In this document: positions 3,529 through 34,337 of the stretch, in pieces
Position numbering within the stretch: the stretch's first letter is position 1
How the letters are laid out: the number at the start of each line of letters is the position of its first letter
Assembly (NCBI GenBank): GCA_037139575.1
Contig: JBAXGD010000002.1
Location: 66 to 64,065 of the forward strand
Length of the DNA stretch: 64,000 nt
Source: a bacterium
Lineage (GTDB): Bacteria; Patescibacteriota; Saccharimonadia; Saccharimonadales; UBA4665
Direction of reading: 5' to 3'
Made by a program: the position numbers and the translations under genes
Notes under the pieces: model-generated
What the model was told of the DNA's origin: nothing
What the model saw: only the letters and a program-made list of their open reading frames with translations
The model's database searches: none

Positions 3529-3851
3529 TTAGTTTGCTCAGGCAATTTGCAGCTAATAGTAGCAGGGTTAATATTCCTGGAAATCAGTGCAGTGGAACCT
3601 GTAGCGACACTGGACTGCCCGGAAGTGCAGTTACAAACGGGACTATCTCTAATCTCCTTCAAATTGCTTTTGGTATTATCGGTGCCGTCGCAGTACTTTA
3701 TATTGTTATAGCTGCACTTCAATTAATTACATCAGGAGGCAACCCTGAATCTGCTAAGAAGGCCAGAGAAACTATAATATACGCTGTCATTGGTTTAATT
3801 GTCGCAGTTAGTGCCGAAGCAATCGTAACCTTCTTTTTAAATAACCTATAG
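3525..3851 (+). CDS. T4SS pilin-like protein, paralog 3
   Basis: CSGTC pair, then a hairpin (FGIIGAVAVLYIVIAALQLITSGGNPESAKKARETIIYAVIGLIVAVSAEAIV). Confidence 0.65.
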   Translation: MISLLRQFAANSSRVNIPGNQCSGTCSDTGLPGSAVTNGTISNLLQIAFGIIGAVAVLYIVIAALQLITSGGNPESAKKARETIIYAVIGLIVAVSAEAIVTFFLNNL

Positions 3852-3853
3852 AT

Positions 3854-4243: not shown

Positions 4244-4255
4244 TGAAGGGATAAT

Positions 4256-4729: not shown

Positions 4730-4805
4730 AAGCTATTGTTTAAATAAATTTTTTATTGTTATATAATGCTAGTAAGAAATTTTAAGTAATCGAAAGGTAA
4801 TATAA

Positions 4806-5255: not shown

Positions 5256-5274
5256 ATAATAACTAGATTAATTT

Positions 5275-5304
5275 AAAAGAGCTCATTTTCATGAGCTCTT
5301 TTTT
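5275..5304. terminator. Bidirectional intrinsic terminator between the pilin array and the hsp20 gene
   Basis: AAAAGAGCTCAT (5275-5286), loop TTTC, ATGAGCTCTTTT (5291-5302). This is a 12-bp perfect stem flanked by an A-run and a T-run, between convergent genes. Confidence 0.65.
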
Positions 5305-5320
5305 GGTAGACACTTTTTAT

Positions 5321-5794
5321 CTATAAGATCTGAATCTTCTTAACAGTATCTTGTTTGATTTTATCAAAGCTAATTGTAAGGACTCCGTCCTTAAGCTGTG
5401 CCTGAATATCATCTTCCTTTACGGGAACAGGAAGCGCTAGGCTTCTTGAGAATTCACCCCAGTAACATTCTTGGACGAAGTAGTTTTCAACATCATCCTC
5501 GTTACCAGCAGAAAGAGTTCCTCTAATACTTAGAGTATTATCTGAAATACTAACATCAAGATCGCTCTTGTTTACGCCAGCAGTTCTTGCCTTTACGACT
5601 AATTTTTCACGGGTCTCATAGACGTCTACTGCCAGTTGTCCTGGTAATGCGTCTTCTTCGTCCCATTCTTCATTGATAGCTTCTGGTGCCCCACTAGGTT
5701 GAGTTTCTGCCGATGAATCATCGTCGCCTAAAAATGCTGCAGTTAGCTCGTCCTCTTCCATCAAAAGGTCATCGTCGCGTTTATTTCGCGCCAT
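5321..5794 (-). CDS. Hsp20/alpha-crystallin family small heat-shock protein
   Basis: Alpha-crystallin domain (LAVDVYETREKLVVKARTAGVNKSDLDVSISDNTLSIRGT...GEFSRSLALPVPVKEDDIQAQLKDGVLTISFDK). The ORF opens at 5809, but GGAGGG (reverse complement of 5802-5807) sits 7 nt before the ATG at 5794 (MARNKRDD), so I prefer that start. Confidence 0.85.
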   Translation of the reverse strand: MARNKRDDDLLMEEDELTAAFLGDDDSSAETQPSGAPEAINEEWDEEDALPGQLAVDVYETREKLVVKARTAGVNKSDLDVSISDNTLSIRGTLSAGNEDDVENYFVQECYWGEFSRSLALPVPVKEDDIQAQLKDGVLTISFDKIKQDTVKKIQIL

Positions 5795-5853
5795 ATTGTT
5801 ACCCTCCATTGATTAATCTTTTTTCGGCTATACTATTTTTTGTATTAACTATC

Positions 5854-5886
5854 AGTATAGTCACATTGCATTCTTCTTGCAAGAAG
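5854..5886 (-). promoter_or_regulatory. Putative hsp20 promoter with a 14-bp perfect palindrome over the -35 box
   Basis: On the minus strand: TTGCAA (5882-5877), 17 nt, TATACT (5859-5854). The palindrome CTTCTTGCAAGAAG at 5873-5886 is centred on the -35 hexamer. Confidence 0.4.
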
Positions 5887-5982
5887 CCAGGCTTAGATTT
5901 ACAACACAATAATTACAACAACTCCCATTTTATAATTTTATAGATGAAAAATTTAAATTTCTTGATATAATCAATCTGTATT

Positions 5983-6072
5983 GGAAGGGTCGCATAGCGG
6001 TCGAGTGCACCTGTCTTGAAAACAGGAGTACCGGAAACGGTACCGTGGGTTCGAATCCCACCCCTTCCGCCA
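5983..6072 (+). tRNA. tRNA-Ser (anticodon TGA), long variable arm, CCA encoded
   Basis: Hand fold: acceptor GGAAGGG/CCCTTCC, anticodon stem-loop CTGTC-TTGAAAA-CAGG region with loop cTTGAaa, long extra arm (GTACCGGAAACGGTAC), T arm GTGGG-TTCGAAT-CCCAC, discriminator G plus CCA. Confidence 0.85.
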
Positions 6073-6081
6073 ATAGACCGC

Positions 6082-6174
6082 GGAGAGATACCCAAGTGGC
6101 TGAAGGGGACGGTTTGCTAAATCGTTAGGGGGGCGAAAGTTCCCGCGAGGGTTCGAATCCCTCTCTCTCCGCCA
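6082..6174 (+). tRNA. tRNA-Ser (anticodon GCT), long variable arm, CCA encoded
   Basis: Acceptor GGAGAGA/TCTCTCC, anticodon arm ACGGT-TTGCTAA-ATCGT, long extra arm, T arm GAGGG-TTCGAAT-CCCTC, G plus CCA. It lies 9 nt downstream of the preceding tRNA. Confidence 0.85.
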
Positions 6175-6188
6175 CAATACTTTTTAGA

Positions 6189-7304
6189 ATGTTTAAAATC
6201 GTAAAAAATATTAAATTTAATAGATATAGCGAGCATCAATCGTTTATACCTAAAAAAGAAATTCCACTAGCCCTTATTATGACTATAGGGCTAATTTTAT
6301 TTAGCATACTAATATGCCTAACTACTTGTCGATATATGATCCTGAACTCAACTGACCATGCAAGATATTTGCTAGAGCCCAATAACAAGCTCAGTGGCTT
6401 TGCCAACTGGGATGGTGTTAGATATCTATTTATTGCTCAGCATGGCTATAACGAAAGTTTCGTGACCGGATTTTTTCCGCTATACCCAATATTAATCTCT
6501 ATAATTACGAAAATCACTGGATCATATTTCTTTAGTGGTATTCTAATATCCTGGACATCATTGTTTGGAGTAGTTTACTTTTACATTAAGATAGTTAAAA
6601 AATTATTTAAAAAAATTACTCCTCAGGAGTCAATTAGAGCGGTCTTATATTTTCTGTTGTTCCCTTCGGCAATCTATCTTTTGTTTATTTATACCGAAAG
6701 TCTATTTGCTTTGCTTGCCCTGTCGTCAATTTACTTTGCGCTAGATAAAAAATATCTTAAGTCTTCGCTATTGGTCGCTCTAGCAACTGCAACACACATA
6801 AGGGGCGCTTTTTTGGTTATATTAATCGGATCCATACTTTTAGAGCAAAAAGTTAAAATATGGAAAATTATATTGTCTATGGCAATTGGCTCAATTGGAC
6901 TGATTACTTACATGGGGTATTTATACAATAATTTTGGCAGCCCAATTGAATTTCTTAAAGCCCAAGAAGTTCATGGCTGGCTTCATCAAAGCATCTTCAG
7001 CCAAATTTGGGCCATCAATACTGTTGAATGGTTCATGATAGTGGGCCTTATTTGTTCGATTATTTATTGGTGGAAGAGGCGAAGAAGTTTTTCTCTCTAC
7101 TCTGCCTTATTTTTGCTCATACCTTTAATAGGTGGCCAATTTGGCGGATTCCCAAGATATGCATTAATGGCCTTCCCTATCCAGCTTATGATTTTTAGCT
7201 ACACAAGAAATAAAAAAATTCTAGCTTGGATAATAGTTGGAATATTTGCTTTTCTTTGGGCTTGGTTTCTAATATTGTTCACTGCCGGATACGTAGTTAG
7301 CTAG
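6189..7304 (+). CDS. GT-C-type integral membrane glycosyltransferase (PIG-V / mannosyltransferase-like)
   Basis: 371 aa with about 9-10 TM helices. The first extracytoplasmic loop carries NWDGVRYLFIAQHGY, resembling the WDxxxYxxIAxxGY loop of PIG-V-like mannosyltransferases. The next gene encodes a GT2 polyprenyl-phosphate glycosyltransferase. Confidence 0.6.
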   Translation: MFKIVKNIKFNRYSEHQSFIPKKEIPLALIMTIGLILFSILICLTTCRYMILNSTDHARYLLEPNNKLSGFANWDGVRYLFIAQHGYNESFVTGFFPLYPILISIITKITGSYFFSGILISWTSLFGVVYFYIKIVKKLFKKITPQESIRAVLYFLLFPSAIYLLFIYTESLFALLALSSIYFALDKKYLKSSLLVALATATHIRGAFLVILIGSILLEQKVKIWKIILSMAIGSIGLITYMGYLYNNFGSPIEFLKAQEVHGWLHQSIFSQIWAINTVEWFMIVGLICSIIYWWKRRRSFSLYSALFLLIPLIGGQFGGFPRYALMAFPIQLMIFSYTRNKKILAWIIVGIFAFLWAWFLILFTAGYVVS

Positions 7305-7345
7305 CCTTACAGATAGAATTCAGGTTTTAAGGTATAATATATCTA

Positions 7346-8293
7346 ATGAAGCTTGTAATAATGATTCCCTGTTTGAACGAGGAGACCACCCTACCTTTGG
7401 TTATTAGTAAAATTCCTAGAAAAATTAAGGGCGTTGAAAGTATAGTCACCCTTATTATTGACGATGGCTCTACCGATAAAACCGTAGAAGTGGCGAAGAA
7501 TCTGGGAATTACAGAATTTATTTACCATGCAAAAAATAGAGGCTTAGCTCACTCTTTAAGGGATGGCATACAAAGATCACTTGAATTGGGCGCCGATATT
7601 CTAGTGCTAACGGACGGAGACAACCAGTATCCTCAAGAAAAAATTCCCGAACTAATTAAGCCAATATTAGATGGTCGAGCCGATACGGTTATAGGCGATA
7701 GAGGTGTTAATACGATTGATCACTTTAGTCCCATGAAGAAGTTTCTGCAGAAATTTGGGACTGGAGTTGTTAATTCACTAGCCGGCACCAATATTCCAGA
7801 CAGCACAAGTGGATTTAGAGCCTACACAAAAGAAGCGGCTATTAAGTTTAATCTTATAGGTAGGTTTAATTTTGCTGCTGAGACTACTATTCAGGCATCA
7901 CATAAAAAGCTAGCAATTGTAAGCATTCCAATAAAAACAAACCCTAAAACCCGCGAATCAAGACTTTTTAAATCATCATGGGAGCATGTTAGAAAAAGCG
8001 CAGTAGCTATGCTTAATAGCTTCACTATGTATAGGCCTCTAACTGTTTTTATGACAGTTGCTGGACTATTGTTTATCGGGGGTATGATTCCCTTCGGGCA
8101 CTACCTTTATTTGGTATTAACCACAAAAAATGCCTACGGGGCTCACCACATACAGTCGCTAATAATAGGCGCTGTATTAATTAATGCTTCATTCACTACT
8201 TTTGCGCTAGGAATTATTGCAAACCTTACTAGAATAAACCGTTCTTTAATTGAAGATGTTTTAGAAGTACAAAAAAGAGAGATATTTAAATAG
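7346..8293 (+). CDS. GT2 family glycosyltransferase (polyprenyl-phosphate mannose/glucose synthase-like) with C-terminal TM anchors
   Basis: IMIPCLNEE, DDGSTDKT, LTDGDNQYP (DxD) and SGFRAY motifs, with two C-terminal helices. Confidence 0.85.
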   Translation: MKLVIMIPCLNEETTLPLVISKIPRKIKGVESIVTLIIDDGSTDKTVEVAKNLGITEFIYHAKNRGLAHSLRDGIQRSLELGADILVLTDGDNQYPQEKIPELIKPILDGRADTVIGDRGVNTIDHFSPMKKFLQKFGTGVVNSLAGTNIPDSTSGFRAYTKEAAIKFNLIGRFNFAAETTIQASHKKLAIVSIPIKTNPKTRESRLFKSSWEHVRKSAVAMLNSFTMYRPLTVFMTVAGLLFIGGMIPFGHYLYLVLTTKNAYGAHHIQSLIIGAVLINASFTTFALGIIANLTRINRSLIEDVLEVQKREIFK

Positions 8294-8878: not shown

Positions 8879-10378
8879 GTGAGCATCGATAACCAAAAAC
8901 AAACAAACATAGGCAGATGGATGACTAGTCAACTTGCTGCTCATCCCGATTCAGATATGTCCGTAGAAAACAGCAAAAGATCCAGTCATAAAAGTAGCCG
9001 AGTTCCCCATTCTGTAATTTACGGCAAGAATCTGCATAAGACTGGCATAATTGCATCATTGGCATTAGTTTTTGTGGTTTTTATAATATATTTCTTTGCT
9101 GCTCCGTATTTTGTGAGGTCTAGCATAGGAAACACAATAATTACCGGTAAGAAAAATAGTGTCGAATATCAGAAAATTATAAGCTCTACGGTTAACTCAT
9201 ATGGATTAAAGGTAGAGTATGCAAATAACAAAATTACTAGCTATAAACTTAGTGATCTAGGGATAGTTCCAAACTATACTCTAACCGAAAATAATCTTAA
9301 AAATATATCCACAAATATTAAGAATAGACTGGAAGTATGGAGAATTAATAAAACAAACATAGTTTTTAAAGTCGACGGCGCCAAATTGAGCGCATTTAAC
9401 TCGGCACACCTAACTCAGATTATTAATCCTCCAAAAAATGCCAACATAGCCCTCAGTAATGGCCAGGTAATACTTTCAGACAGTTCCGTGGGTAAAGAGT
9501 ATGGATTTACCGGTGGAATAAATGCTGTTTTATCAAGCGCCAAATTACTGGATCAAAAACCAATTATACTGAGCGTAATATCTGTAAATCCACCTATTTC
9601 CACTGAGCAACTAACCCCCCAGAAAAGTATCTTAACCGCGATGCTTTCACAGTCGGCATCGATTAGTATAAACGGCGAAATAATTACTCCCTCGGCTAAC
9701 GATATCGGCTCCTGGATAAATGTAGATGTTAATCCAAAAAACGGTAAAGTAAGTACGAGCGTAAACCAGGCCAATATTAACACTTATTTGGGAAGAATAG
9801 CCTATAAATACACCAAACCTACCAAAGATCAGCTAGTTCTGGCTGGTGCAGATGGCACAACTACTGTGATTCAGCCAGGACATGACGGAATAGGAATTTT
9901 GAACCAAGCTGCAGTTGCACAGTCTATTTCGGATCAAGTTCTTCAGGCTAAAGGAATATCGGCTACAATTTCTGTACACGTGACCCCTTATGGAACAATT
10001 ACTACCGACACCTATCCTAAATGGATTGAAGTCAATGTCGTAACTAAAAAAATGTATGTCTATGAGAATTCTAATCTCGTGAATTCGTTCCTTGTCAGTG
10101 CCGGAAAGTCATCTACGCCTACCCCACTCGGTATGTACAAAATATTTTCAAAATATGCCGTACAGACAATGATCGGAGCTGACTATGTACAACCCAATGT
10201 GCCTTGGATTAATTACTTTAAAGCCGGTGGCTATGCAATTCATGGCAACTACTGGCGACCTTCGGATTGGTTCGGTAACATAAATAGCTCACATGGGTGT
10301 GTTGGTTTGCAGGTTAGTGACGCTGAGTGGGTATATAATTGGGCCCCAATAGGGACCCCAATTATAATTCACGAATAG
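8879..10378 (+). CDS. L,D-transpeptidase (YkuD domain) with long N-terminal extracellular region
   Basis: N-terminal TM anchor. The C-terminus contains YVYENSNLVNSFLVSAGKSSTPTPLGMYKI...YAIHGNYW...SSHGCVGL, the catalytic His...(S/T)HGC motif. The GTG start at 8879 comes from the track; an ATG at 8921 is an alternative. Confidence 0.85.
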   Translation: MSIDNQKQTNIGRWMTSQLAAHPDSDMSVENSKRSSHKSSRVPHSVIYGKNLHKTGIIASLALVFVVFIIYFFAAPYFVRSSIGNTIITGKKNSVEYQKIISSTVNSYGLKVEYANNKITSYKLSDLGIVPNYTLTENNLKNISTNIKNRLEVWRINKTNIVFKVDGAKLSAFNSAHLTQIINPPKNANIALSNGQVILSDSSVGKEYGFTGGINAVLSSAKLLDQKPIILSVISVNPPISTEQLTPQKSILTAMLSQSASISINGEIITPSANDIGSWINVDVNPKNGKVSTSVNQANINTYLGRIAYKYTKPTKDQLVLAGADGTTTVIQPGHDGIGILNQAAVAQSISDQVLQAKGISATISVHVTPYGTITTDTYPKWIEVNVVTKKMYVYENSNLVNSFLVSAGKSSTPTPLGMYKIFSKYAVQTMIGADYVQPNVPWINYFKAGGYAIHGNYWRPSDWFGNINSSHGCVGLQVSDAEWVYNWAPIGTPIIIHE

Positions 10379-11238: not shown

Positions 11239-12717
11239 TTATTGCAAAGAAGCTGTTAACCTTGCAATGTTATCTAGTAGTATTTTGCGCCTAGACCTCT
11301 TGCTCCAACTTTCCAAGCTAATTTGTTTGGAATTTTCTAAATAACTTCTGGACAGATTTTCAAGTTTTTCCGCAATATCTTTATTGTAAATAATTACGGT
11401 TATTTCTAGATCAAGTTCGAATGACCTTATGTCTAAATTGCTTGACCCGACAGTGACTATTTCACTATCGATTACTATAAACTTGGAATGTAGCAGAACT
11501 GGCTTGTTGTATGTAAAAATTTTAACCCCAGCTTTTAGGAGTATTTCGTAAAATGATCTTTGAGCATGCGCTACCAGCCATTGATCTTCAGCTTCGGAAT
11601 TTATTAAAATTATTTCGACACCTCTTTTTGCTGCACTAGTTATCGCCAGTAGTAGCGAATCATCAGGGACAAAATAAGGATTAACTAAAATTACCCTTTC
11701 TTTTGATGCATGAATGAGCGAAGTAAATAATTTGAGGTTATTCTCATCTTCATAACCTGGACCGCTTGGCAATATTTGAGCAATAGTCTTGCCTGGAAAT
11801 TTTATCTCTCTTTCTTGGTTTGTATACTTTTTGTAGTCGAGTAACTTGTTCGTCTCCGAAAACCAATCAGTTAGAAAAATAGCCCCCAGTTGCAAGACGG
11901 CTGGACCTTCTATTTTGACGACCAATTCATCGTAATATATGTCATCTTTACGGTGATAATTTCTCTGAACCAAATTCTGAGATCCCGAATAACCAACCTT
12001 TCCATCGATCACGACTATTTTTCGGTGATTTCTAAGATCTGGCCTAACATATCCCCTGCCCGGAAACTTTAATGGGAGCATTGGAACCGCTATTACTCCA
12101 GATGTATTCAATCTTTTCATCATTGAGCGGTAATTTGCATATTTTTTAGTCGAAAAGCTGTCAAAAAGTACTTTAACTTGAACTCCTCGATTTATTGCGG
12201 ATTCTAAAGCTTGAAAAATCGGTTCAGTAGAACCATCCATAGCTATTATGAAATATTCTAGATGAACAAATTCTTTCGCAAGATTTATATCGGCAGTAAT
12301 CGATTTAATTATAGAATCATAGTCATCGATTATTTGAATATTATTCCCGCCAAACGGAGGAAGATGGCTTAAGGATTCACTTAATTTAGCTATTTGTTCG
12401 AATTTTTCTGGAACATTCTTAATAATTTCGCCATCTTTCTGATGACCCTTCATTCCCAGAATAGTTTTCTCAATTACGTTATTTAGTGTTTTTTGGGCAT
12501 CTCTTCTAGATTTAGGTAGCTTAGGATTGCCAAGTATTAAAAAAAGCAAAAAACCAAAAGGAGGAAAAAAGAATATCAAAAGTAACCATGCCATACCTGA
12601 TGATGGTTTCCTATTTTTTGGAACAACATAAAGTGAAAGCAATCGAATTATCCATTCGCCTAGCAGCCACCAAGATCCTAAAAACTCTAAATTACTTAAA
12701 GATAATGCTGAATGCAC
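11239..12717 (-). CDS. cls: Cardiolipin synthase (phospholipase D superfamily)
   Basis: Two N-terminal TM helices and two HKD motifs: NHRKIVVIDGKVGYSGSQNL and LHSKFIVIDSEIVTVGSSNLDIRS. Confidence 0.9.
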   Translation of the reverse strand: MHSALSLSNLEFLGSWWLLGEWIIRLLSLYVVPKNRKPSSGMAWLLLIFFFPPFGFLLFLILGNPKLPKSRRDAQKTLNNVIEKTILGMKGHQKDGEIIKNVPEKFEQIAKLSESLSHLPPFGGNNIQIIDDYDSIIKSITADINLAKEFVHLEYFIIAMDGSTEPIFQALESAINRGVQVKVLFDSFSTKKYANYRSMMKRLNTSGVIAVPMLPLKFPGRGYVRPDLRNHRKIVVIDGKVGYSGSQNLVQRNYHRKDDIYYDELVVKIEGPAVLQLGAIFLTDWFSETNKLLDYKKYTNQEREIKFPGKTIAQILPSGPGYEDENNLKLFTSLIHASKERVILVNPYFVPDDSLLLAITSAAKRGVEIILINSEAEDQWLVAHAQRSFYEILLKAGVKIFTYNKPVLLHSKFIVIDSEIVTVGSSNLDIRSFELDLEITVIIYNKDIAEKLENLSRSYLENSKQISLESWSKRSRRKILLDNIARLTASLQ

Positions 12718-12769
12718 AATTATATCCCCTATTTATTCGGTTTAGGCTCAAGAGGTAATTGTATATTAT

Positions 12770-13321
12770 TTATCTATTATTATGAAGCTCAATAAGAGTT
12801 CTGGCTAAGACTATGCTCGCTGCAGAAGTGTTTCTTTGGAAATAGCCTATTGTCTCTGTAACCTCAGGATCATGATATGTTTCGCCTAGTGTGCTCGCAA
12901 AAGTAATCGCTGCCGCCTTAGTAGCAAACTTTAGTTTTGAAATATTTCTTCCATCGGATGATTCTGTTTTTGCCTTATTCCATGAGTAAGTCAATTTTTG
13001 AAATGAGTGTATTGGCTGAACTATCTTCAAACGATGTTCGAATTCCTCACCTGATTCATCTTTAAAACGAACAGTATCAGACTCTTTAGTAGGAGCAATA
13101 TCACTAGCCATGAAAATCATGGCCTTGAATTTATCCATAGTATCATCGCTAAGGGCATTAAAATGCTCAATAGATAATCTGTCGACAATAACTGCTAGAT
13201 TTCGAACCAATAATTCTGATGAGCTGTGAACATATATGTCAGGCTCGGAGGCAATTTCATCTCCAATCCTTACGTTTGCGTCCATTAGCTCTTGAACGTC
13301 GCTTTTATAAGTCCCATGCAT
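12770..13321 (-). CDS. Hypothetical protein
   Basis: 183-aa ORF with no recognisable motif. Confidence 0.55.
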   Translation of the reverse strand: MHGTYKSDVQELMDANVRIGDEIASEPDIYVHSSSELLVRNLAVIVDRLSIEHFNALSDDTMDKFKAMIFMASDIAPTKESDTVRFKDESGEEFEHRLKIVQPIHSFQKLTYSWNKAKTESSDGRNISKLKFATKAAAITFASTLGETYHDPEVTETIGYFQRNTSAASIVLARTLIELHNNR

Positions 13322-13520
13322 AATAGTATTATATAATAATCATAGAGATAAGTAAATAGCTATTAGTGATTAAGATTTATAAAGGTCCAGTTCAAGGAAT
13401 GGGAGTCCAAGTTTTTTTGGTATTTACTCGAATTTCTATTTTTAAGGATAATTATCTTAATATCATAAACCCAATAAACGGTTAAAAATATATGGTGCAG
13501 CATTATGGCTGAGGTTAGAA

Positions 13521-14171
13521 CTATATTTCTATTGTTTCATAATTCTGAAGTGGTATAAAAGTAACACCAAACTTCTCCATTACTTCAGGCAGCTTAGCGT
13601 ATATAGCACCTCGAGCTTCTTCATTCCAATGCCAGTCATGCAATGGAACAACGGTTTTTGGGCGGTCAGACATAGCTTCAATCATTTTCGTAAAGCCTAC
13701 AACTGCGCCCCACGGACCACCATTGACGGCAGCGGCAAGTATTCGCGCTCCATTTGAGCTATTCAAAGTCTGGCAGTCGCCACTGACAAGTATCTCATCA
13801 AAAATAACATAGCTAGTGTGTAGTGGCTGGTTATCAAACCATGGTGAAAGATCAGCGTGTTTTGACTCGATAAATCTTATGTTTTGATCGTCACTGCTAG
13901 TCCGGCCGCTAATATTAATATCTTTTAAGCTATCTGCAGTTTCCTGAGTACCATACCACACTGCCCTCGGCGAGGCTTGTTTTACCGCATTGGCAAAATC
14001 AACACTGAAATGGTCAGGATGATTATGGGTCACCACGACCGCAGAAATTCCAGAAAGTTCAAAGTGTTTTACTTTTTCATCTTGCCAGCTGTACACCCCG
14101 GGATCAACAAGTATTTTTGTGCCGTCTTTCTCCACGAGTAAGCATGAATGGACTAATTTAGTTAATTTCAT
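13521..14171 (-). CDS. MBL-fold metallo-hydrolase
   Basis: VVVTHNHPDHF (HxHxDH) motif near the N-terminus, with later His/Asp residues (SKHAD, PLHDWH). Confidence 0.8.
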   Translation of the reverse strand: MKLTKLVHSCLLVEKDGTKILVDPGVYSWQDEKVKHFELSGISAVVVTHNHPDHFSVDFANAVKQASPRAVWYGTQETADSLKDINISGRTSSDDQNIRFIESKHADLSPWFDNQPLHTSYVIFDEILVSGDCQTLNSSNGARILAAAVNGGPWGAVVGFTKMIEAMSDRPKTVVPLHDWHWNEEARGAIYAKLPEVMEKFGVTFIPLQNYETIEI

Positions 14172-14229
14172 ACTTTAATAATACCAAACAAAAAACACTT
14201 CTGTCGAAGTGCTTTAAGTATAAGCTATT

Positions 14230-14306
<77 letters not shown>

Positions 14307-14377
14307 GCTAAGAAGTAATGCTAGCATATTTCACCCTAGTTATCCAGAGTACTTCCCTGCTACAATGTCATATTAAT

Positions 14378-14467
14378 GGAGAGGTGGCCGAGTGGTTGAA
14401 GGCGCTGCTCTCGAAAAGCAGTATATCGGAAACGGTATCGAGGGTTCGAATCCCTCCCTCTCCGCCA
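14378..14467 (+). tRNA. tRNA-Ser (anticodon CGA), long variable arm, CCA encoded
   Basis: Acceptor GGAGAGG/CCTCTCC, anticodon arm CTGCT-CTCGAAA-AGCAG, long extra arm, T arm GAGGG-TTCGAAT-CCCTC, G plus CCA. Confidence 0.85.
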
Positions 14468-14535
14468 ATTATATAAATATAAAAATACTATTTTTAGCTG
14501 ATATAATGCTAATGTAATATTCAAAAATAAAAATT

Positions 14536-17500
14536 ATGAGCAAAGAAGCAATTCCTCAACTATCAAGCGAATCCAAAGAACTTATTTCTTCATTGCCTCC
14601 CAATCTTCGAGCCACGTCGGAAGAAAGAATTTTGGCATTATCGCATACTGCCCTACATTCCAATGATATTTTAGTTGGTACCACGCCTATACCTCAAGAA
14701 AAGCTCTCTGAAGAACATTTGCCCCATATAGATAGAGTCACCGGTATCATGAAATCTTCTTCAGAAATTCTTGGAGTTGCATATGGTGAAATCGATGATG
14801 ATGGCGCTAGCTTTGAAGACCTGGCAGACAAAGCAATAGAAATTGCTATCAGAAGTGCCAAGGAAGCCAAAGAAAGTCAAGATGATGAATCGAGCGTGGT
14901 TTTTCTGGAATCACTTTTAGCAATAACCACTCTCAAGGAAAAAACGAGTAATGAATACTCTAAAAAATTAGCTAGAGAAATAATATCTCAAGGCCTATCT
15001 ACAGAACTTATTAAGGCTACACACAACTCTTTCGGGATTGTTGCGAATAATGATGGCAAGCTTACTCCGCTGAATTCGGTTGCGCAGACTAGCACAGATC
15101 TTTTAAGGGCAACTTCGCCCTTTGATTTCAATTATGATTTTTCTGAAATCGAAACTAAAGAGCCAGACACTGATCTTAGCAAGCTTGGCTGTGGAGACCT
15201 AACTGTTTTGGCTAGATTAGCCGACAAAAATCCGTCCTTAAGTCTTGTAAGTAAAGATGTCATGGTTTTAGCTGTTCGTAAAATGAAAATTGAACGAGAA
15301 GTTGATCTTGACGATTTTACGACAGCACTGATAGCTGCTGATGAAATTATTGGAAAAAGCGACGAACTAGAATCTTCATTGTCTTCACTTAGGGCTAGAC
15401 GCAAATCAGGAAATGCGAATTATAGAAACAATGATCCAGACACTTTCAGATTAGATTCAGTATTATTTATTCTAGTCCAGCAAGGCCATGATTACCTTGC
15501 GAGAGGGCTATTATCATCATCGCCAAATGAAGCGGATAATTTCGAATCATATGTCAATTCGCATGGAATTAGCGATGAGTATACGACCGAAACATTGAGA
15601 AAAATCGCCGATATGAGAAACGAAAAAGAACTAGAACTGGTCGCTTCTATGAAAAATAATGCAGCAAACGATGAAACCATTGCATGGATCATAGGATCCG
15701 CCTACGATCCAGATTCAGCAGCGGGAATAAAGGCTAATTTTTGGGCTCAGCTAGAGAAAAATTCTTCATTACGCGAAGTATTGCTTTCGGACAGTAATAA
15801 TTTGCTAGAAACTTCAGAAGCTTTGACCAAGATGAATGATTTAGGCTTAGAAAAATATAGTCATATTCTCATATCTATTGTCAATAATATAGGTGATGAA
15901 GAAATTCAAAATAAATTCCTAACTTCTTTTAAGGAAGCAGAAGCAATGCTATCCAAAATCAATGAAAACGGTGCCATTAACTCAAATATGGATAGTATAT
16001 TAGGACGGCTTGCTTCCTTTGAGGATCCGGTTATGGCAATTCGAGCCGCCAAGGACTTATTTGGTGAAGATGAATATTTGAAAAATATATATAACCTACA
16101 GTCTCTTGTGCATCCAGACTATTTAGCATATGCAGAAATTATAGCCTTTAGCCAGAACAATATAGATGCCTTGATTAATGTCAGGAATTATATTTCAGAA
16201 ACAGGTCTCGATCCAAGTTTTTTGAGTTTTACTGCAAAGACTATTTCAAAATCAGACGATCCCATTGCTCGTTCTAAAATTATCATCAGCTCACTTGAAA
16301 TTGCGAAATCAGTCTTTCAAGAGGATCAAAACATTATTTACCAGATAATCGATAAAGAAAATCTATTTGAAATTAGTAAGGCACTATCGGAGATTAATGC
16401 TGCGATAATATCCACTAACGAGTCACTTAGACAAAGCCTAAATAGGAAGATCTTTGATTCGTTGGAGCCTGAAAAAACTGCACAATTAATGATTAAAACT
16501 CAGAATGAAATTATTGGACAGAACATAACTCTAGATGAGATGAAAGATAAAGATTTTTTTGATGCAATGATTGTTGTAGCTAATGCTGATGACCCCAAAG
16601 AAGTTGTAAAATTTTGCAGTAATTGGAAAGTAAAGAAAGAGGGTGAAGTTGCATATGGAAAATTTTGGAGTACTGCGGCAGAAGGTGGTTTAGAAAAACT
16701 CGACCCATTATTGCTTCCATCGCTTAAAGACTATCCCGAGTTGAGCGCACGCTTAAATGCAATTGGAATCTCTCCAGAATTAGCCGAAGATATATTCAAT
16801 TCTTGGAATACTAAATCTGAACTAAATAGGTTGCTCTACAATGACGACAGAACTATCTCAGAAACGAAGCCCGAAGACATTCAGTACGCCCTACCAATGC
16901 AAGCAGAGAGATTAATACCACAAATAGAGGCACTAGAAAAACATATCTCCGAATATGGCTTTGAGGAAACAAAGAAAATTATCGACATTTTTGGCATATA
17001 TCATTTTTCGAGATATCCAGACGGCATTCTTCACAAACAACTAAGACAATGGGAAAACTCAGAAGCTCCTATTAAGAACATCGTAGTTACGGCCAAGTCT
17101 GACTGGAATGGGGCTCTAGATAGCGCAGGGAAAACTTATGTGAATGGTATAGAGGAAGACGGACTTTTTTATTTTGAAGTAAATGATAAAATTCAGCTGG
17201 CTAAGGTTGCAGTAAGCGTTGGCAATAGAGAGCGTTCTATGGGTCGAAATCCAGAACAAGAAAGCCAATTAAAAAACTTTAAAATTAATGCTCATGCAAG
17301 CCCTAGCGGAATATTATTTGGGGTAAATGGGGAAAGGTTGAGTGTAGAGGATTATCTCGGAGAGCCTTTAAGTGGCTCGAAAGCCAATACCTATAAGAAG
17401 CACTTAGGGAGTAACTATAGAGTTATTCTAGAGGCTTGTTCGACTGCTGGTGAGGTTAAGGACGGCAAAAATATTGCTGAATCAATTAGTGATGGTCATG

Positions 17501-29058: not shown

Positions 29059-30762
29059 ATGAAAGATAAGATACAAAAAGTCATAAAAGACGAAATTTTC
29101 AAACACTTCAAAGTGACCGTAGACCCAGTTATTACCAGGCCAGATGAAAAATTTGGTGACTACACTACAAATATTAGCTTTGGTCTTGCCCATCAGCTCA
29201 ATAAGAATCCAAGAGAAATTGCTGAGAAATTAATCGAGGGAATAAGACATTCACTAGCATCTGATGCAATTCAAGTAAACAATGTTGCAAACTTTATTAA
29301 TATTAAGCTGAGTGACGAAGCTCTAATTAAAGACTCAGAGTTAGCTATTACATATAAGCCAAATTTGTATAAGGACCAGGTCATTGTCTGCGAATACTCT
29401 GACGCAAATCCATTCAAAGTATTTCACGTTGGACACCTGTACACATCAATCGTAGGTAATGCCATTGCTAATCTTTTTGAGGTGGCTGGTGGAAAAGTAT
29501 TCAGGGTAAATTTTGGTGGCGATGTAGGCAGACATGTTGCAATAAACATGTGGGCCATACTAAATACTGCCGGAAAGGGTGACCCAAAAGTGGCTCTAGA
29601 GTTTTTGGCAGGCCTAGAACCAAAGTCCTTAGATGAAAAAGCTGCTTATCTTGCAGATCGTTATGTTGAAGGAACTCAAGCATTTGAATCTGAGGAATCT
29701 GAACCCCATACTCAGATTACCGAACTTAATAAGAAGTTGTACGAAATTGTTAACTCAAAAGATCATGAATCTGACATTGCAAAGATTTATTGGCTCTGCA
29801 GAGACTGGAGCTATGCGTATTTTAAAAAGTTTTATCAGGATATAGAGATCACAGCCTTTGATCGCTATTATCCCGAAAGCGAAACTGCGCCAATTGGAAT
29901 AGATACTGTCAATAAACAATTAAAGAATGGTGTCTATGAGGAAAGTGATGGAGCAATAGTTTTTAAGGGTGAAAAATACGGTCTTCACACAAGAGTCTTT
30001 ATTACATCCCAGGGACTACCATCATATGAAGCTAAAGATTTGGGGCTAATTATGGCCAAATACAGAGACTTCAAATTTGATAAGTCTATCGTAATCACTG
30101 GCAACGAGATTACTGAATACATGAGGGTGGTGCTTAAAAGCTTAGAGCAGTATGAACCCAAATTGGTTGCCGCCACCACACACTTAACTCACGGAATGGT
30201 AAAGATGGCCGGTGGCGTAAAGATCAGTAGTAGGAAGGGTAATGGTCTTAGAGCAAGGCAAGTTATTGAAGATACTGCAAAAATTAATTTTGAAACTACT
30301 AACACAAAGAGCATGGAGACAACCCTTGGTGCAATCAAGTATGCCTTCCTAAAACAAAGACTTGGACCAGATTTGATATATAGCCCAGAAGAATCGGTCA
30401 GCATTACTGGAAACAGCGGACCATACCTACAATATTCACATGCTAGATCGAGGAGTATTCTTAAAAAAGTAGATAAGACAATTGAGCCATCGAGCTATGG
30501 GCTTGATGATCAGGAAAGACAGCTCACAAGAAAAATAAGTGAGTTCCCGGACTATTTAGACAAGTCTATTGCCGAAATCATGCCTCATCACCTTTGTACG
30601 TACCTCTATGAGCTATCCCAGTCGTTCAATAAGTTCTATGAGGCTAGTCGAGTCATTGGCGACGACAGAGAGGCTATAAGGCTCAAAATAGTTAGCTTAT
30701 ATTCAGATATTTTGAAGAAGGGCCTGGAGCTATTAAGTATTTCAGCTCCTAATCAGCTTTAA
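29059..30762 (+). CDS. argS: Arginine--tRNA ligase
   Basis: N-terminal Arg_tRNA_synt_N-like domain, FHVGHL (HIGH-like), ISSRKGN, and a C-terminal DALR anticodon-binding region (HHLCTYLYELSQSFNKFYE). Its last 93 nt are part of the left 227-bp repeat. Confidence 0.9.
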   Translation: MKDKIQKVIKDEIFKHFKVTVDPVITRPDEKFGDYTTNISFGLAHQLNKNPREIAEKLIEGIRHSLASDAIQVNNVANFINIKLSDEALIKDSELAITYKPNLYKDQVIVCEYSDANPFKVFHVGHLYTSIVGNAIANLFEVAGGKVFRVNFGGDVGRHVAINMWAILNTAGKGDPKVALEFLAGLEPKSLDEKAAYLADRYVEGTQAFESEESEPHTQITELNKKLYEIVNSKDHESDIAKIYWLCRDWSYAYFKKFYQDIEITAFDRYYPESETAPIGIDTVNKQLKNGVYEESDGAIVFKGEKYGLHTRVFITSQGLPSYEAKDLGLIMAKYRDFKFDKSIVITGNEITEYMRVVLKSLEQYEPKLVAATTHLTHGMVKMAGGVKISSRKGNGLRARQVIEDTAKINFETTNTKSMETTLGAIKYAFLKQRLGPDLIYSPEESVSITGNSGPYLQYSHARSRSILKKVDKTIEPSSYGLDDQERQLTRKISEFPDYLDKSIAEIMPHHLCTYLYELSQSFNKFYEASRVIGDDREAIRLKIVSLYSDILKKGLELLSISAPNQL

Positions 30763-30896
30763 TGAGTAGGGTATAATATCAATTACGTGAACATTATAGG
30801 AGATCATTGAATGGACAAAGTTCTAAAAGGAAGCAAACGTGCAGTTTCGAAAGTAGCACCATTAACTTCAAAAACCATTAATAAACAAGTTGGTGG
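30670..30896. repeat. Direct repeat, left copy (227 bp): argS 3' end + spacer + mscL 5' end
   Basis: Identical base for base to 34111-34337 (offset 3441) in my manual comparison. It contains TATAAT (30772-30777), an AGGAG RBS and the mscL ATG (30811). Confidence 0.95.
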
Positions 30897-30909
30897 CTTT
30901 ATTCAATAG
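30811..30909 (+). pseudogene. mscL: Truncated mscL 5' fragment (32 codons, then stop)
   Basis: MDKVLKGSKRAVSKVAPLTSKTINKQVGGF matches the intact MscL at 34252 for 30 residues, then diverges (IQ-stop) at the repeat boundary. Confidence 0.85.
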
Positions 30910-31000
30910 TTACAGGAGCGATACTTATAGTGGTCTGGAGATTTATCATAAAAACTGCAAGCGAGATAGAGAACGAAAAAAAGTAAAAAGCTGTGCTAGG

Positions 31001-31036
31001 TATCGTATTGACATACACATACGATAGGCATACAAT
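31001..31036 (+). promoter_or_regulatory. Consensus promoter of the TA operon embedded in an inverted repeat (putative antitoxin operator)
   Basis: TTGACA (31008-31013), 17 nt, TACAAT (31031-31036). The inverted repeat TATCGTA (31001-31007) / TACGATA (31020-31026) brackets the -35 box. The ATG at 31046 is only 10 nt from the -10 box, so the mRNA is (near-)leaderless and there is no SD. Confidence 0.55.
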
Positions 31037-31045
31037 AGCTATATT

Positions 31046-31330
31046 ATGAGTAACGTACAACTAAGTATAAAAACAGACGAGAACACCAAGCGAGAGCTAA
31101 AGACTTTTGCCACAGAGCTAGGTGTATCAAGCACCGCCCTTGTAAATATGGTCGTAAAGCAGGCTCTACGAGACCGCCGTGTAGTTTTGAGCACCAACCT
31201 TGAGCCAACTCCCTACCTTGAACAAGTTATGAGGGACGCCGACGCCGACTATAAAGCCGACCGTGATATTACACATACTAAAGGCTCAAAAGGGGCATTA
31301 GCCCACCTCGACAGCTTAATGAAAAAGTAA
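31046..31330 (+). CDS. Type II antitoxin, RelB/DinJ-like ribbon-helix-helix
   Basis: MSNVQLSIKTDENTKRELKTFATELGVSSTALVNMVVKQAL is an RHH-type N-terminus of DinJ/RelB antitoxins. 94 aa; stops 3 nt before the toxin ATG. Confidence 0.75.
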   Translation: MSNVQLSIKTDENTKRELKTFATELGVSSTALVNMVVKQALRDRRVVLSTNLEPTPYLEQVMRDADADYKADRDITHTKGSKGALAHLDSLMKK

Positions 31331-31333
31331 ATT

Positions 31334-31594
31334 ATGGACGTTGATTTTACTAAGGCGTTCAATAAACAATTTGATAAATTACCCCGTAAAAAGCAGGAGC
31401 AAGCTAGGGACGCCGTAGCTCTATTTGTAGAGGACATATCCGCTACACCGCTCCGTAATCACGGACTAAAGGGCGAGTGGTTAGGCTACCGTTCTATCAG
31501 TGCGGGAGGCGACTTACGCCTACACTATCAAGTGATTACCGAGACAAAGGTACTCTTTGTCGCTGTTGGCTCACATAGTCAGTTATACAAATAA
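31334..31594 (+). CDS. Type II toxin, RelE/YafQ-family mRNA interferase
   Basis: 86 aa. ...PLRNHGLKGEWLGYRSISAGGDLRLHYQVITETKVLFVAVGSHSQLY parallels the YafQ/RelE core (H-x-L-x-G-x-W-x-G-x-R ... D-x-(L/R)-L-x-Y ... GTH). Confidence 0.75.
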   Translation: MDVDFTKAFNKQFDKLPRKKQEQARDAVALFVEDISATPLRNHGLKGEWLGYRSISAGGDLRLHYQVITETKVLFVAVGSHSQLYK

Positions 31595-31596
31595 CG

Positions 31597-31631
31597 TGTA
31601 AACAATGTTTACTATGTTTACGTTGTAAACA
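31597..31631. repeat. Four GTAAACA/TGTTTAC half-sites in alternating orientation
   Basis: TGTAAACA (31597-31604) a TGTTTAC (31606-31612) ta TGTTTAC (31615-31621) gt TGTAAACA (31624-31631). The array begins 3 nt after the toxin stop codon. Confidence 0.8.
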
Positions 31632-31743
31632 AGTACCTAACTTATTGCTCGTGCAGACACCTTGTCGCATAATAGCCTTACTTGTTAGGTCTCACATATT
31701 GCCGCTTACAGCGAGCAACAAGGAGTAAGTCCCACCTGTGGCA

Positions 31744-31772
31744 TTGACACGAACCTTAAAATATGATAGTCT
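31744..31772 (+). promoter_or_regulatory. Possible promoter for the 658-aa gene
   Basis: TTGACA (31744-31749), 17 nt including a TG at 31764-31765 (extended -10 position), TAGTCT (31767-31772). The -10 box is weak. Confidence 0.3.
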
Positions 31773-31814
31773 GTTAGACACAAAAAATAAAAAACGTAAC
31801 GCTACAATTACACT

Positions 31815-33791
31815 ATGCAAACACCCGGAAGCTCATTTCTACACGAGAGAAACCCCAATCTCCACGCTTCGCAAGAAGTAGAAGGTGTGGTGGGCTATTT
31901 GCGTGCTGGCGGTGAGCATATCCCAAATGAGCCAGCAGATAAGATCTCTGCTCATTTAGGCTTTCTTGCTCATAGAGAATACGTCAATGACGGCATACTA
32001 ACTGGTGACCAATCGAGTATTGATCGCCAGATTGAAGCCAATGTCATTAAGGCCGAAAATGTACCGGATGGCTACTTTGAACTACAGCGTCGTATAGCTC
32101 GTGAACAAGGACACGGTGACGTTACTATTACCCAAAATATGCGTGAGCAAATGACTGAAGCAGTTCAGGCTGATCAGCGAGTCGGACTTGGCAAATGGGT
32201 TGAGTACCTCGGTGGCGAAGATGGTGGCTATCCGGACTGGTTTAAGTCCTACACATTTTCTTCTGTCACGAAACTCGGCAATTACGATAAGGAAAAGGGC
32301 GAATTCCTGAAGCGTAGTCGTGGAACTACAGCCGCTTATCCGGAACTTAACCGTGAGGCTTTAGCCTATGTCTACGATGTGCTCAATAAATCAAGAGTGC
32401 AGCACGAGCCAGTTGATGGTGGTGCCAATAACGAACAGCTCCAAAAGTTACTGCAAGGTGCCAATTTTGGTAAACTCTATGCACATGCCGTTCTTGAGAT
32501 TGCTCCAACTTCACCGGAATTGCTCAAAGATACCAGAGGCTCTTGGACAAAGTTCAACCAGAGTTCAGACCCAAGAACAGCCCGAAGGCTCGCTGGTTCG
32601 TTGCAGGGGCATGGTACTGGCTGGTGCACAGCGGGCGAATCCACCGCAAACATACAGCTTCAGGGTGGCGACTTTTACGTCTATTACACTCGTGATGAAG
32701 ACGGAAAAGAGACTGTTCCGCGCGTAGCAATTCGTATGCAAGAAGGTTCAGTAGCCGAAGTGCGTGGTATCAATACTGCCCAAGAGCTTGAGTCCGAAAT
32801 GGCAGATATTACGTCTGAGCGTCTGCAAGATCTACCTGGGGGCGAAGAGTATATTCGAAGAGCCCAGGACATGAAACACCTGACTGCCATAGACAAGAAG
32901 ATAACAGCCGATCCTACTACTGAACTTACTGGCGATGAGCTACGATTTCTCTATGAACTGGACCATGACATCTCAGGATTTGGTTACAAACGTGATCCAC
33001 GCATTGACGAGATAAGGGCTAAACGAGAAGGCCGGGATAAGCCGGAACTTGCCCGCATACTCCCTGAAACCATTCGCGACCAGCTAAGAGGTGCGTTTAT
33101 GGCTTACAGCACTGTTGCAGGCCAACTAAAAACCGAGCGTCGCTTTCGCAAGCCAGAATCTGGCGTATCGGCACAAGAGCTTGAGCACCTGTTTGCTCTC
33201 AAAGATAAGGAATGGCAAGAAAACGGCGTCTACGATCACTTAGTGGAAGAACTGATTGCCAATGGTGCTCGCTATAACCTAGTAGCCACGCCTAATGTGG
33301 AAGCAACCGAAAAACAAATTGTTGCTTTGGCTGAAGCGTTTGGTAAAGACCAGCCTTACGAAACCTACGTGTACGATGAGCTATATCGTAAAGGCAGATA
33401 CACAGGCCGTGAATTTTCTGGTAACGGCGGTAGCGACCCAGTTCGCCTCAGCCTCATTCCATCCCGTCGTGATGCAGTTTTGAGCGGTAAAACGGTTGAA
33501 ACACAGGTGCGAATGCTGAGGGAGCAGCAAACTGGTAAGCCTAACCTCAATTTGCGTGTCCCAAGTGTTCTTGACGCTGTTACCTACTGGTACACGCTAC
33601 GAGCACAGGGCGACAAACTAGCCGACAGTAGCGCATTCGACAAAACCTATATCCGACACTTCGACCTAGAACCTAAGGCGGTCGCCGGGTGGTCGTTCGT
33701 TCCGTACTCCTACGTGCTCTACGGTGGCACGCCGAGCTTGTACCGCTCGGGTGTCGAGGACGACGATGGCGCTCGCGTGTCGGTGGGGTAA
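31815..33791 (+). CDS. 658-aa island protein of unknown function with a single cysteine in a GHGTGWCTAGES segment (possible PcfJ-like core)
   Basis: Long uninterrupted ORF with GC-rich codon usage unlike its neighbours. No signal peptide, TM helix, P-loop or nuclease motif recognised. Cys271 (32625-32627) is the only Cys. Confidence 0.8.
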   Translation: MQTPGSSFLHERNPNLHASQEVEGVVGYLRAGGEHIPNEPADKISAHLGFLAHREYVNDGILTGDQSSIDRQIEANVIKAENVPDGYFELQRRIAREQGHGDVTITQNMREQMTEAVQADQRVGLGKWVEYLGGEDGGYPDWFKSYTFSSVTKLGNYDKEKGEFLKRSRGTTAAYPELNREALAYVYDVLNKSRVQHEPVDGGANNEQLQKLLQGANFGKLYAHAVLEIAPTSPELLKDTRGSWTKFNQSSDPRTARRLAGSLQGHGTGWCTAGESTANIQLQGGDFYVYYTRDEDGKETVPRVAIRMQEGSVAEVRGINTAQELESEMADITSERLQDLPGGEEYIRRAQDMKHLTAIDKKITADPTTELTGDELRFLYELDHDISGFGYKRDPRIDEIRAKREGRDKPELARILPETIRDQLRGAFMAYSTVAGQLKTERRFRKPESGVSAQELEHLFALKDKEWQENGVYDHLVEELIANGARYNLVATPNVEATEKQIVALAEAFGKDQPYETYVYDELYRKGRYTGREFSGNGGSDPVRLSLIPSRRDAVLSGKTVETQVRMLREQQTGKPNLNLRVPSVLDAVTYWYTLRAQGDKLADSSAFDKTYIRHFDLEPKAVAGWSFVPYSYVLYGGTPSLYRSGVEDDDGARVSVG

Positions 33792-34084
33792 ATCCTTTAG
33801 CTTTTGCCCTTCCTTTTAGTCTTTCTTCTCTTTTTTCTTTCCGGTGCTTCTTCGAAATTTTTTTATCTAATAAACTACCTACGAATATAACTGTTCGGGG
33901 GTAAGTAGTCCAAAGATAACACCCATCGGTGCCCCTGATGGATAGTTGTTTGCATTATGCCTAAAAAGACTTTTCTAATAGAGGAGCCGCTACTTTTTAG
34001 AGCAGTAAGCACGTCAAGAACCCTTAACACCCCACGTGTCTTTAGTGGTAGTGCCAATATGGTGCTGAAACAATAGCGGTCTTT

Positions 34085-34100
34085 CAACCACGAGTGGTTG
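34085..34100. repeat. 16-bp palindrome 10 nt inside the right island junction
   Basis: CAACCAC-GA-GTGGTTG, with perfect 7-nt arms. Confidence 0.7.
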
Positions 34101-34110
34101 TTACGAACAG

Positions 34111-34337
34111 GAGGCTATAAGGCTCAAAATAGTTAGCTTATATTCAGATATTTTGAAGAAGGGCCTGGAGCTATTAAGTATTTCAGCTCCTAATCAGCTT
34201 TAATGAGTAGGGTATAATATCAATTACGTGAACATTATAGGAGATCATTGAATGGACAAAGTTCTAAAAGGAAGCAAACGTGCAGTTTCGAAAGTAGCAC
34301 CATTAACTTCAAAAACCATTAATAAACAAGTTGGTGG
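34111..34337. repeat. Direct repeat, right copy (227 bp)
   Basis: Identical to 30670-30896. Here the argS-derived 93 nt have no upstream reading frame, while the mscL part continues into the intact gene. Confidence 0.95.

Follow-up and report, generated by a model that had tools for sequence, protein, structure and literature searches.

The question raised by this locus was what kind of protein is encoded by a long open reading frame (ORF) at 31815..33791 (+ strand) of a 64,000-nt stretch of DNA, hereafter the window, from a Saccharimonadales bacterium (contig JBAXGD010000002.1). The ORF ran uninterrupted from ATG to TAA and encoded a protein of 658 aa whose only Cys is residue 271 (codon 32625-32627, within LQGHGTGWCTAGES); its GC content was 0.48-0.49, compared with approximately 0.35-0.41 on either side. 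No transmembrane segment or signal peptide was found in the protein, which had a maximum 19-residue Kyte-Doolittle mean of 0.75 and a hydrophilic N-terminus. These properties agreed with an earlier note on this DNA, which had also called the protein unassignable apart from a possible PcfJ-like core. Scans of the protein, singly and as a profile, against Pfam, NCBIfam, PADLOC, PHROG and PDB sequences gave nothing significant; the PADLOC scan returned PDC-M28B alone, with a non-significant E of 0.01 and 13 bits. More than 1,282 homologs were found at E<=1e-3, and those with names were all 'hypothetical protein' of Candidatus Saccharibacteria or Saccharimonadales. A profile search retrieved 2,319 cluster representatives (50%-identity clusters), which together with the homologs ruled out a chance ORF and showed the gene to be real. 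With high confidence, we assign the product as the variable (target) protein of a diversity-generating retroelement (DGR), a member of a family specific to Patescibacteria (candidate phyla radiation, CPR) and best represented in Candidatus Saccharibacteria, which has been separated from its retroelement.

The evidence for this assignment came from relatives that carry the other DGR components after the target gene. In the first two homolog contexts, the target gene was followed by a bAvd-like ORF of 112 aa on the opposite strand and then by an RVT_1 reverse transcriptase (RT), and the third context was the same. The last 114 nt of the target gene recurred approximately 400 nt downstream at 80-84% identity, and wherever the two copies differed, the downstream one had an adenine (23/23 mismatches in L002, 18/18 in L003). 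Mismatches solely at adenines of the downstream copy are the diagnostic signature of a DGR, identifying the downstream copy as the template repeat (TR) and the 3' end of the gene as the variable region (VR). When 80 loci from species-representative genomes were surveyed, among them 20 full-length relatives, an adenine-biased TR/VR pair was present in 14/20 full-length loci, with 261 of 278 mismatches at TR adenines in these 14 pairs, which had been pre-filtered for at least 80% A-bias. RT and/or Avd were detected by tblastn in 15/20 full-length loci. The order of the intact cassette was promoter, target gene (with the VR as its last 114 nt), a structured RNA of approximately 250 nt, TR, inverted avd and RT. 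The family is therefore no longer unassignable, given the cassettes and the adenine-only mismatches in these relatives. DGRs are enriched and unusually abundant in CPR genomes. In the intact relatives, a complex of RT and Avd copies the TR RNA with adenine-specific errors, and the mutagenised cDNA replaces the VR; this rewriting hits approximately 17 codons, nine of them AAY, and leaves the scaffold residues between them fixed.

Two side observations concern the cassettes themselves. In L014, a (GTCA)n microsatellite of approximately 15 units (9224-9285) lay straight after a shortened RT match ending at 9226, and the RT of this cassette may be disrupted there. A third partial copy of the TR, a 24-nt segment at 88% identity that may be a chance match, was present at 12413-12436 of L005.

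The VR of the window gene occupied 33678..33791 (+), corresponding to aa 622-658 and the stop codon. In the family alignment, hypervariable columns (2.4-3.4 bits) were found at residues 628, 631, 635-637, 639, 641, 643, 644, 646 and 648-652, and the residues between them were fixed (V629, P630, S632, V634, G638, P640, L642, S645, R654, V657 and G658). A codon map showed that the variable residues were those templated by AAC, AAT, GAC, GAT or AAG in the TR of a relative. In the window, the variable residues at AAY/GAY/AAG-templated codons were 624, 625, 628, 631, 635-637, 639, 641, 643, 644, 646 and 648-652. What the earlier note had described as a beta-rich C-terminus is thus the hypervariable tip of a DGR target. 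When the window VR was compared with the TR of L006, 19 of 25 mismatches fell at TR adenines, with A making up 30/113 positions (P 3.5e-7). The 3' end of the window VR, GTGTCGGTGGGGTAA, resembled an initiation of mutagenic homing (IMH) site; it ended in the same GGTGGGGTAA as the VRs of active relatives, whose corresponding TRs read GGAGGGG or GGAGAGG. A protein 94% identical overall to that of the window (P0003) differed from it at 15/37 VR residues compared with 25/621 residues elsewhere (40% vs 4%). The closest relatives (window, P0003 and P0004; 92-94% identical) were all cassette-less and had different VRs.

One variant of the window gene (P0001, from a JGI sample) was identical up to residue 638 and then continued in another frame to a total of 668 aa, the affected stretch corresponding to approximately 33728-33791 of the window. 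The change may be a true frameshift within the VR or may stem from an indel introduced in sequencing or assembly. Exact-protein look-ups returned matches for the window protein, P0002 and P0003, and no match for P0001.

No TR, Avd or RT was found in the 64-kb window when it was searched by blastn and tblastn with the components of relatives and by a repeat search. DNA homology to relatives was limited to 31743-34112. It started at 31743/31744, approximately 70 nt 5' of the ATG, at a promoter-like site (31738..31767, +; a consensus match only, 9/12) that forms the 5' edge of the DNA unit common to the relatives, and it ended at approximately 34112, 17 nt short of the TR start in L005 and 10-17 nt before the TR overall. 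The window therefore keeps the promoter-like site, the gene, the VR, the IMH-like end and the structured RNA, and ends before the TR. The exact window protein, including its VR, was present on contigs of five other samples (JGI 3300021601 and 3300021069, ENA ERZ27300165, and the SRA runs SRR7053571/2); these contigs matched the window at 100% identity along stretches of up to 11,944 nt. The absence of TR, avd and RT from 64 kb and the unchanged VR in five other samples indicate an orphaned, apparently frozen target; metagenome scans for the native mscL junction and for the exact window VR gave no match. We infer that the window VR was formerly diversified and is now frozen: rewriting is no longer possible in cis, and the allele looks fixed.

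Other orphans formed a series of progressive loss. L009 had the gene, the spacer RNA and approximately 37 nt of the TR. In the window the spacer RNA was still present after the gene, with nothing of the TR; in L004 the first RNA motif was all that followed the gene; and in L015, L017, L021, L027 and L100 nothing but the gene was left. Such a series, together with the variant P0001 from one JGI sample, in which the frame is lost after residue 638, is what would be expected if the window gene were a functionless remnant that has been decaying into a pseudogene since the loss of the retroelement. This is highly improbable, since the 658-codon frame was intact and identical in five samples, the promoter-like region was kept, and the orphan genes at other sites retained full-length frames and the invariant residues of the family. 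The mapping of the break point of an orphan may be new.

Between the gene and the break, the window held a conserved structured non-coding element (33859..34105, +). The spacer from stop codon to TR was approximately 320 nt in relatives, with a DNA identity of 77% between the window and L002, and contained the invariant blocks GGGGTAAGTAGTCCAAAG, ATCGGTGCC, AAGCACATCAAGAAC, CCCCACG and GGTGCTGAAA. RNAalifold predicted five helices with 31 pairs from 17 sequences, and compensatory double changes were seen in 22 of the pairs. In this structure 93% of cells were paired, compared with 35-44% when the partners were slid by 1-3 columns; the covariation score was 0.53 compared with 0.07-0.13 in the slid controls, and none of 500 shuffles attained any of the observed measures. 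The element was assigned to the + strand because of its many G-U pairs. A covariance model of the 5' 180 nt had a single match in the window, at 33891-34070 (158.8 bits, E 5.6e-35), and also matched L018 and L026, both of which were outside the training set. Elsewhere the element was located at 10002-10220 of L002, 10072-10246 of L005, 7446-7621 of L018 and 8046-8210 of L026. The model had no match in distant CPR relatives, and an Rfam scan of the island region matched no family. We suspect that the element forms the 5' portion of the DGR template RNA; the window has kept it despite the loss of the TR, its likely partner. The occurrence of a lineage-specific structured RNA before the TR may be new.

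The protein consisted of two parts. The C-terminal domain that bears the VR (aa 451-658; 33165..33788, +) was modelled alone by AlphaFold2 with a pLDDT of 97 and a pTM of 0.92. The PDB matches with meaningful TM-scores were C-type lectins (3ubu_B, 6xfq_B and 1egi_A; TMt 0.43-0.45), and these were non-significant (E 0.5-0.9, probability 0.16-0.21). None of the listed PDB fold matches of this domain was a known DGR variable protein, and a fold search of PDB with the full-length 658-aa protein gave nothing significant. In most DGR variable proteins the VR is displayed on a C-type-lectin fold (PMC5006420, PMC6328139). The C-terminal domain may be an uncharacterised variant of this fold, of the sort that Roux et al. 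anticipate for CPR (PMC8144416).

The model of the whole protein had a pLDDT of 88.5, mostly 80-95 in the N-terminal module (aa 1-441; 31815..33137, +), with a disordered linker at aa 442-448. The N-terminal 410-440 residues or so were 40-50% identical across many CPR phyla, in proteins whose C-termini differ, and were common to Moran-, Kuenen-, Woese-, Shapiro-, Falkow-, Roizman-, Kerfeld- and Magasanikbacteria and other CPR phyla. Invariant residues in 65-81 diverse CPR sequences included Q121, W128, R167, Y222, W244, T268, W270, C271, G285, F287, P302, R303, A305, R317, G318 and R396; the Cys and its neighbours, which the earlier note had proposed to check for conservation, are therefore conserved. 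At least five distant CPR relatives of the module were DGR targets themselves, with an A-biased TR/VR pair at the gene 3' end, and four more had an RT nearby. A Pfam scan of 65 diverse members found almost no other Pfam domain and no PF14284. The GC excess of the gene over its flanks recurred in other genomes (0.50 vs 0.41 in L001/L002, 0.47 vs 0.40 in L005, 0.50 vs 0.48 in L004 and 0.57 vs 0.55 in L003), indicating that it is partly a trait of the family and not only of the window island; this is consistent with lateral spread or with a compositional constraint.

The PcfJ-like core suggested by the earlier note around the Cys was placed, as a remote resemblance, at aa 255-338 (32577..32828, +), including the invariant W270-C271, P302-R303 and R317-G318. 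In a Foldseek search of the viral library BFVD, the top match was a 'PcfJ-like protein' (A0A6J5KJN7, E 7.3e-4, prob 0.99), and ranks 2, 9, 13 and 19 were also PcfJ-like; the TM-scores of these matches were low (0.13-0.17) because both proteins are multidomain. A PcfJ profile was built from 12 diverse domains, taken from the plasmid pCF10 and the phages Shbh1, BigBertha, SM1, MDA2, ENFP1, K, LP-064, ADU4, Freya_8 and Dionysus. Local hhalign of the CPR core (aa 235-345) against this profile aligned 80 columns over window residues 255-338 with a score of 26.0 (P 0.0012, probability 19%), which none of 200 column-shuffled controls attained (11.5 +/- 2.3, maximum 17.9). The register paired WC-T with HC-V, QGGDFYVYYTR with kG.tlIlflR, PRVAIRM with ks.TiEir and VAEVRGIN with vQ..G..N (CPR and PcfJ, respectively), which is the order of elements that the earlier note had described. 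A hidden Markov model of the CPR family scored approximately 0 bits on PcfJ sequences, with the register as expected. A homolog search with the PcfJ domain gave close Enterococcus relatives only, and hhalign against a shallow Enterococcus-only profile produced a spurious 16-column match; that profile was replaced by the 12-domain one.

By the Pfam criterion, the protein is not a member of PF14284. It had no match to PF14284 at E<=1, nor did any of 65 diverse family members at E<=1e-3, whereas the control, PcfJ of pCF10 (L086, 447 aa), matched at residues 287-433 with 148.9 bits; BLASTP of the 658-aa protein against pCF10 PcfJ gave no match. The suggested resemblance thus stands as a remote one and fails as family membership. 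From these comparisons we conclude that the N-terminal module probably contains a remote PcfJ-like core, with the Cys as the only invariant polar residue shared. As in PcfJ (PF14284) of Enterococcus faecalis pCF10, Herelleviridae and other Firmicutes phages, the order of elements appears to be an aromatic residue or His, a Cys that varies in neither family, a hydrophobic strand that closes with Arg, a strand led by Pro or Lys, and x-Q/E-x-R/x-G-x-N. Unlike PcfJ, the CPR family resides on chromosomal DNA and not on a conjugative element or phage, and its core lies within a 440-aa module fused to a DGR VR domain. The recognition that the N-terminal module is very widespread in CPR and has a remote PcfJ core may be new. 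Taken as a two-part binder, the protein would show the variable tip of its C-terminal domain as a ligand-binding surface, and the N-terminal module, with the PcfJ-like core and Cys271, would supply a constant activity.

Several points weigh against reading the ORF as an orphaned DGR target. The C-type-lectin fold expected of a VR domain is weakly suggested by the models. No DGR was found within 6 kb of most distant CPR relatives of the N-terminal module, indicating that the module does not depend on diversification. The activity proposed for the module is conjectural, and no experimental function for PcfJ was found in the searchable literature. The samples with the identical VR represent a single clone (100% identity over 12 kb), and their sequences are consensus assemblies, in which minority variants do not show. 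Beyond the 64 kb the genome was out of view, and a DGR elsewhere in it could serve the window VR in trans.

If so, the gene would be a remote target still diversified by a complete DGR beyond the 64-kb window. Such a target would be expected to have an intact ORF, an IMH-like end GGTGGGGTAA the same as that of active relatives, and a promoter and RNA element still in place, all of which the window gene has; diversification in trans would also fit the differing VRs of the window, P0003 and P0004, and DGRs with several non-adjacent targets have been described (PMC5758913). We nevertheless regard continued diversification in trans as unlikely, given that no RT, avd or TR occurred in 64 kb and the VR was identical in five other samples; each orphan VR may just as well have become fixed before the copy parted from its cassette.

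The target gene resided in an island whose surroundings were as the earlier note had described. The gene order was argS (29059-30762), a RelB/DinJ-like antitoxin gene (31046..31330, +), a RelE/ParE-family toxin gene (31334..31594, +), the target gene, an MscL-like gene, msrB and an HxlR regulator, the toxin-antitoxin (TA) pair being inside the island and outside the conserved DGR-derived unit. The flanking window genes were 55-76% identical to, and syntenic with, those of Saccharimonadales metagenome-assembled genomes, which makes the host a Saccharibacterium. The island was bounded by a perfect direct repeat of 227 nt, with a left copy at 30670..30896, comprising the last 31 argS codons, the intergenic region and the first 29 mscL-like codons, and an identical right copy at 34111..34337 (the 231 nt reported by the repeat tool included an imperfect 4-nt extension). 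The argS-mscL junction was thus duplicated, leaving argS intact on the left and mscL intact on the right of an insert of 3,214 nt (30897-34110). The right junction fell within a microhomology, ACAG(A)GAGGCTA, present both at the 3' end of argS and where the DGR spacer of relatives ends. Two independent JGI assemblies held both repeat copies and the same gene order, indicating that the structure is not a one-off assembly artefact. One ENA MEGAHIT contig (L099; ERZ27300165 k141_60920) spanned exactly 30670-34251, that is, one 3,441-nt unit with a 141-nt terminal overlap. Such an overlap characterises a circular or looped graph path and is compatible with, though not proof of, a circle excised between the repeats or a loop in the de Bruijn graph. 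A search around the cassettes of eight other loci revealed no long flanking repeats; the 227-nt duplication is therefore no family-wide signature.

Elsewhere in the window, two 96-nt segments (5979-6074 and 14374-14469; 73% mutual identity) resembled long-arm tRNA genes with a GGTTCGAATCC T-loop and were unrelated to the DGR target.

When the window (21336-58462) was compared with other Saccharibacteria along their syntenic backbone, cassettes and orphans were found at different sites: before groES/groEL in L016, before truB in L002, between fpg and holA in L014 and L027, after RNase J in L021, before serS in L100, and between argS and mscL in the window. A different intergenic site per genome on a syntenic backbone indicates that the unit is mobile; no recombinase linked to it was found. 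Such site-to-site mobility on a syntenic backbone may be new.

The earlier note had taken the gene for the cargo of a TA-stabilised island, with a function such as defence, exclusion or host interaction. In such a role, the PcfJ-like module would act as an effector and the variable tip would recognise a molecule of an invader or host. This is compatible with the DGR assignment and gained no support from the analysis; we consider it quite unlikely. In its favour are the remote PcfJ-like core, as PcfJ domains are known from conjugative plasmids and 449 phage records, and the position of pCF10 PcfJ beside an AcrIIA9-family gene. The prophage-like surroundings of L005 and the RelE gene adjoining the target in L027 point the same way. 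The pairing of a conserved module with a DGR-diversified binding domain has reportedly been proposed in a review as a design for DGR-based immunity. Against it, the PADLOC scan gave no significant match, the N-terminal module had no tblastn match in 50,697 phage records, and the literature searched gave no experimental function for PcfJ. A RelE homolog was present in just 2/85 homolog loci and a RelB homolog in 0/85, and neither the TA genes nor the left part of the insert had any other counterpart in a homolog locus. TA-stabilised cargo therefore describes one insertion and not the family. Homologs mostly occupied chromosomal intergenic sites among housekeeping genes, with one prophage-like context (L005); the survey of neighbourhoods thus did not bear out a regular association with TA modules, conjugative elements or defence islands, and no defence-system model matched.

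Three loci mentioned here have features of their own. In L027, a RelE-family toxin gene (5654-5902), 40% identical to that of the window, lay immediately 5' of the cassette-less family member (5989-7986) at the fpg-holA site, with no RelB homolog detected at this locus. In pCF10 (L086 15874-17984), pcfJ overlapped a co-oriented gene annotated 'Cas9 inhibitor AcrIIA9 family protein', a gene order that hints at an anti-defence neighbourhood for canonical PcfJ. In L005, an intact cassette with an 84% identical target lay among genes for a ParB-methylase, a terminase-like protein, a ResIII helicase, a second methylase and a serine recombinase (3802-7053, 11728-17210); these surroundings were prophage- or mobile-element-like, in contrast to the housekeeping genes around the other loci.

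A terminase-like gene, ParB-methylase and serine recombinase beside a cassette, as in L005, might suggest that the protein was left by a degraded prophage, as a receptor-binding or tail-fibre-like protein resembling Mtd of a Bordetella phage; the first known DGRs diversify phage receptor-binding proteins (PMC2408619). This origin is extremely improbable, as no phage structural genes were found near the window copy or most relatives, there was no tblastn match in phage records and no PHROG match, and the cassette stood between housekeeping genes at many sites.

As an orphaned DGR target, the window gene is of a known kind. Wu et al. (2018) described CPR targets in which a 'PcfJ-like protein' motif precedes the VR (category g), and found the B3 architecture in 90% of CPR DGRs (PMC5758913), so the window gene is a new, cassette-less member of a kind already described. 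The family shares with category g/B3 and with the CPR 'clade 2' targets of Roux et al. (2021; PMC8144416) the CPR host, the VR at the extreme C-terminus, the order of target, TR, inverted avd and RT, the PcfJ-like motif upstream of the VR, and a target that has no transmembrane segment or recognisable conserved domain. It differs in that its link to PcfJ is below the Pfam threshold and that the window copy is without TR, avd and RT; the window family may be among those listed by Wu et al. or Roux et al. Inactivated DGRs and non-adjacent targets within 10 kb were also reported by Wu et al. (PMC5758913). The window resembles such incomplete or inactivated DGRs in having a VR with an IMH-like end and no adjoining TR or RT, but its break is defined to approximately 15 nt, just 5' of the TR and at the junction of the 227-nt duplication, and a TA pair accompanies the orphan. 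Compared with the C-type-lectin-fold proteins Mtd of Bordetella phage BPP-1, TvpA of Treponema denticola and TaqVP of Thermus, the family likewise has a C-terminal VR of approximately 38 aa, adenine-specific mutagenesis, AAY-templated variable positions that alternate with a fixed scaffold, and an IMH-like GC-rich 3' end. However, these proteins were absent among the listed PDB fold matches, which held only generic, non-significant C-type lectins; the N-terminal module of the CPR family is unrelated to them, and an extra conserved structured RNA precedes the TR.

Since no export signal was found, the protein is probably cytoplasmic or leaves the cell by a non-classical route, and it fits the class of 'non-membrane-bound CPR targets' left open by Roux et al. 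(PMC8144416). In a speculative and improbable extension of this idea, the N-terminal module would be an enzyme or effector directed by the diversified C-terminal domain to a changing set of targets inside the cell, for example proteins derived from a phage or a host, giving a cytoplasmic, retroelement-driven form of recognition. Cassette-less copies would then be alleles of fixed specificity, passed from strain to strain on small TA-stabilised units through homologous or microhomology-mediated recombination, perhaps in the form of a 3,441-bp circle.

The 'mystery island cargo' of the window has thus become an orphaned DGR target of a known kind. DGR targets of CPR are almost all annotated as hypothetical, and their true non-membrane status is an open question acknowledged by Roux et al. 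in 2021 (PMC8144416). A large target family (2,319 cluster representatives) now gains an anatomy, with an N-terminal module, a modelled VR domain and a structured RNA upstream of the TR, and the invariant Cys of the N-terminal module is a residue to mutate. The separation of a target from its retroelement is documented with a break point resolved to approximately 15 nt, and the occurrence of the cassette at different intergenic sites bears on how DGRs move.

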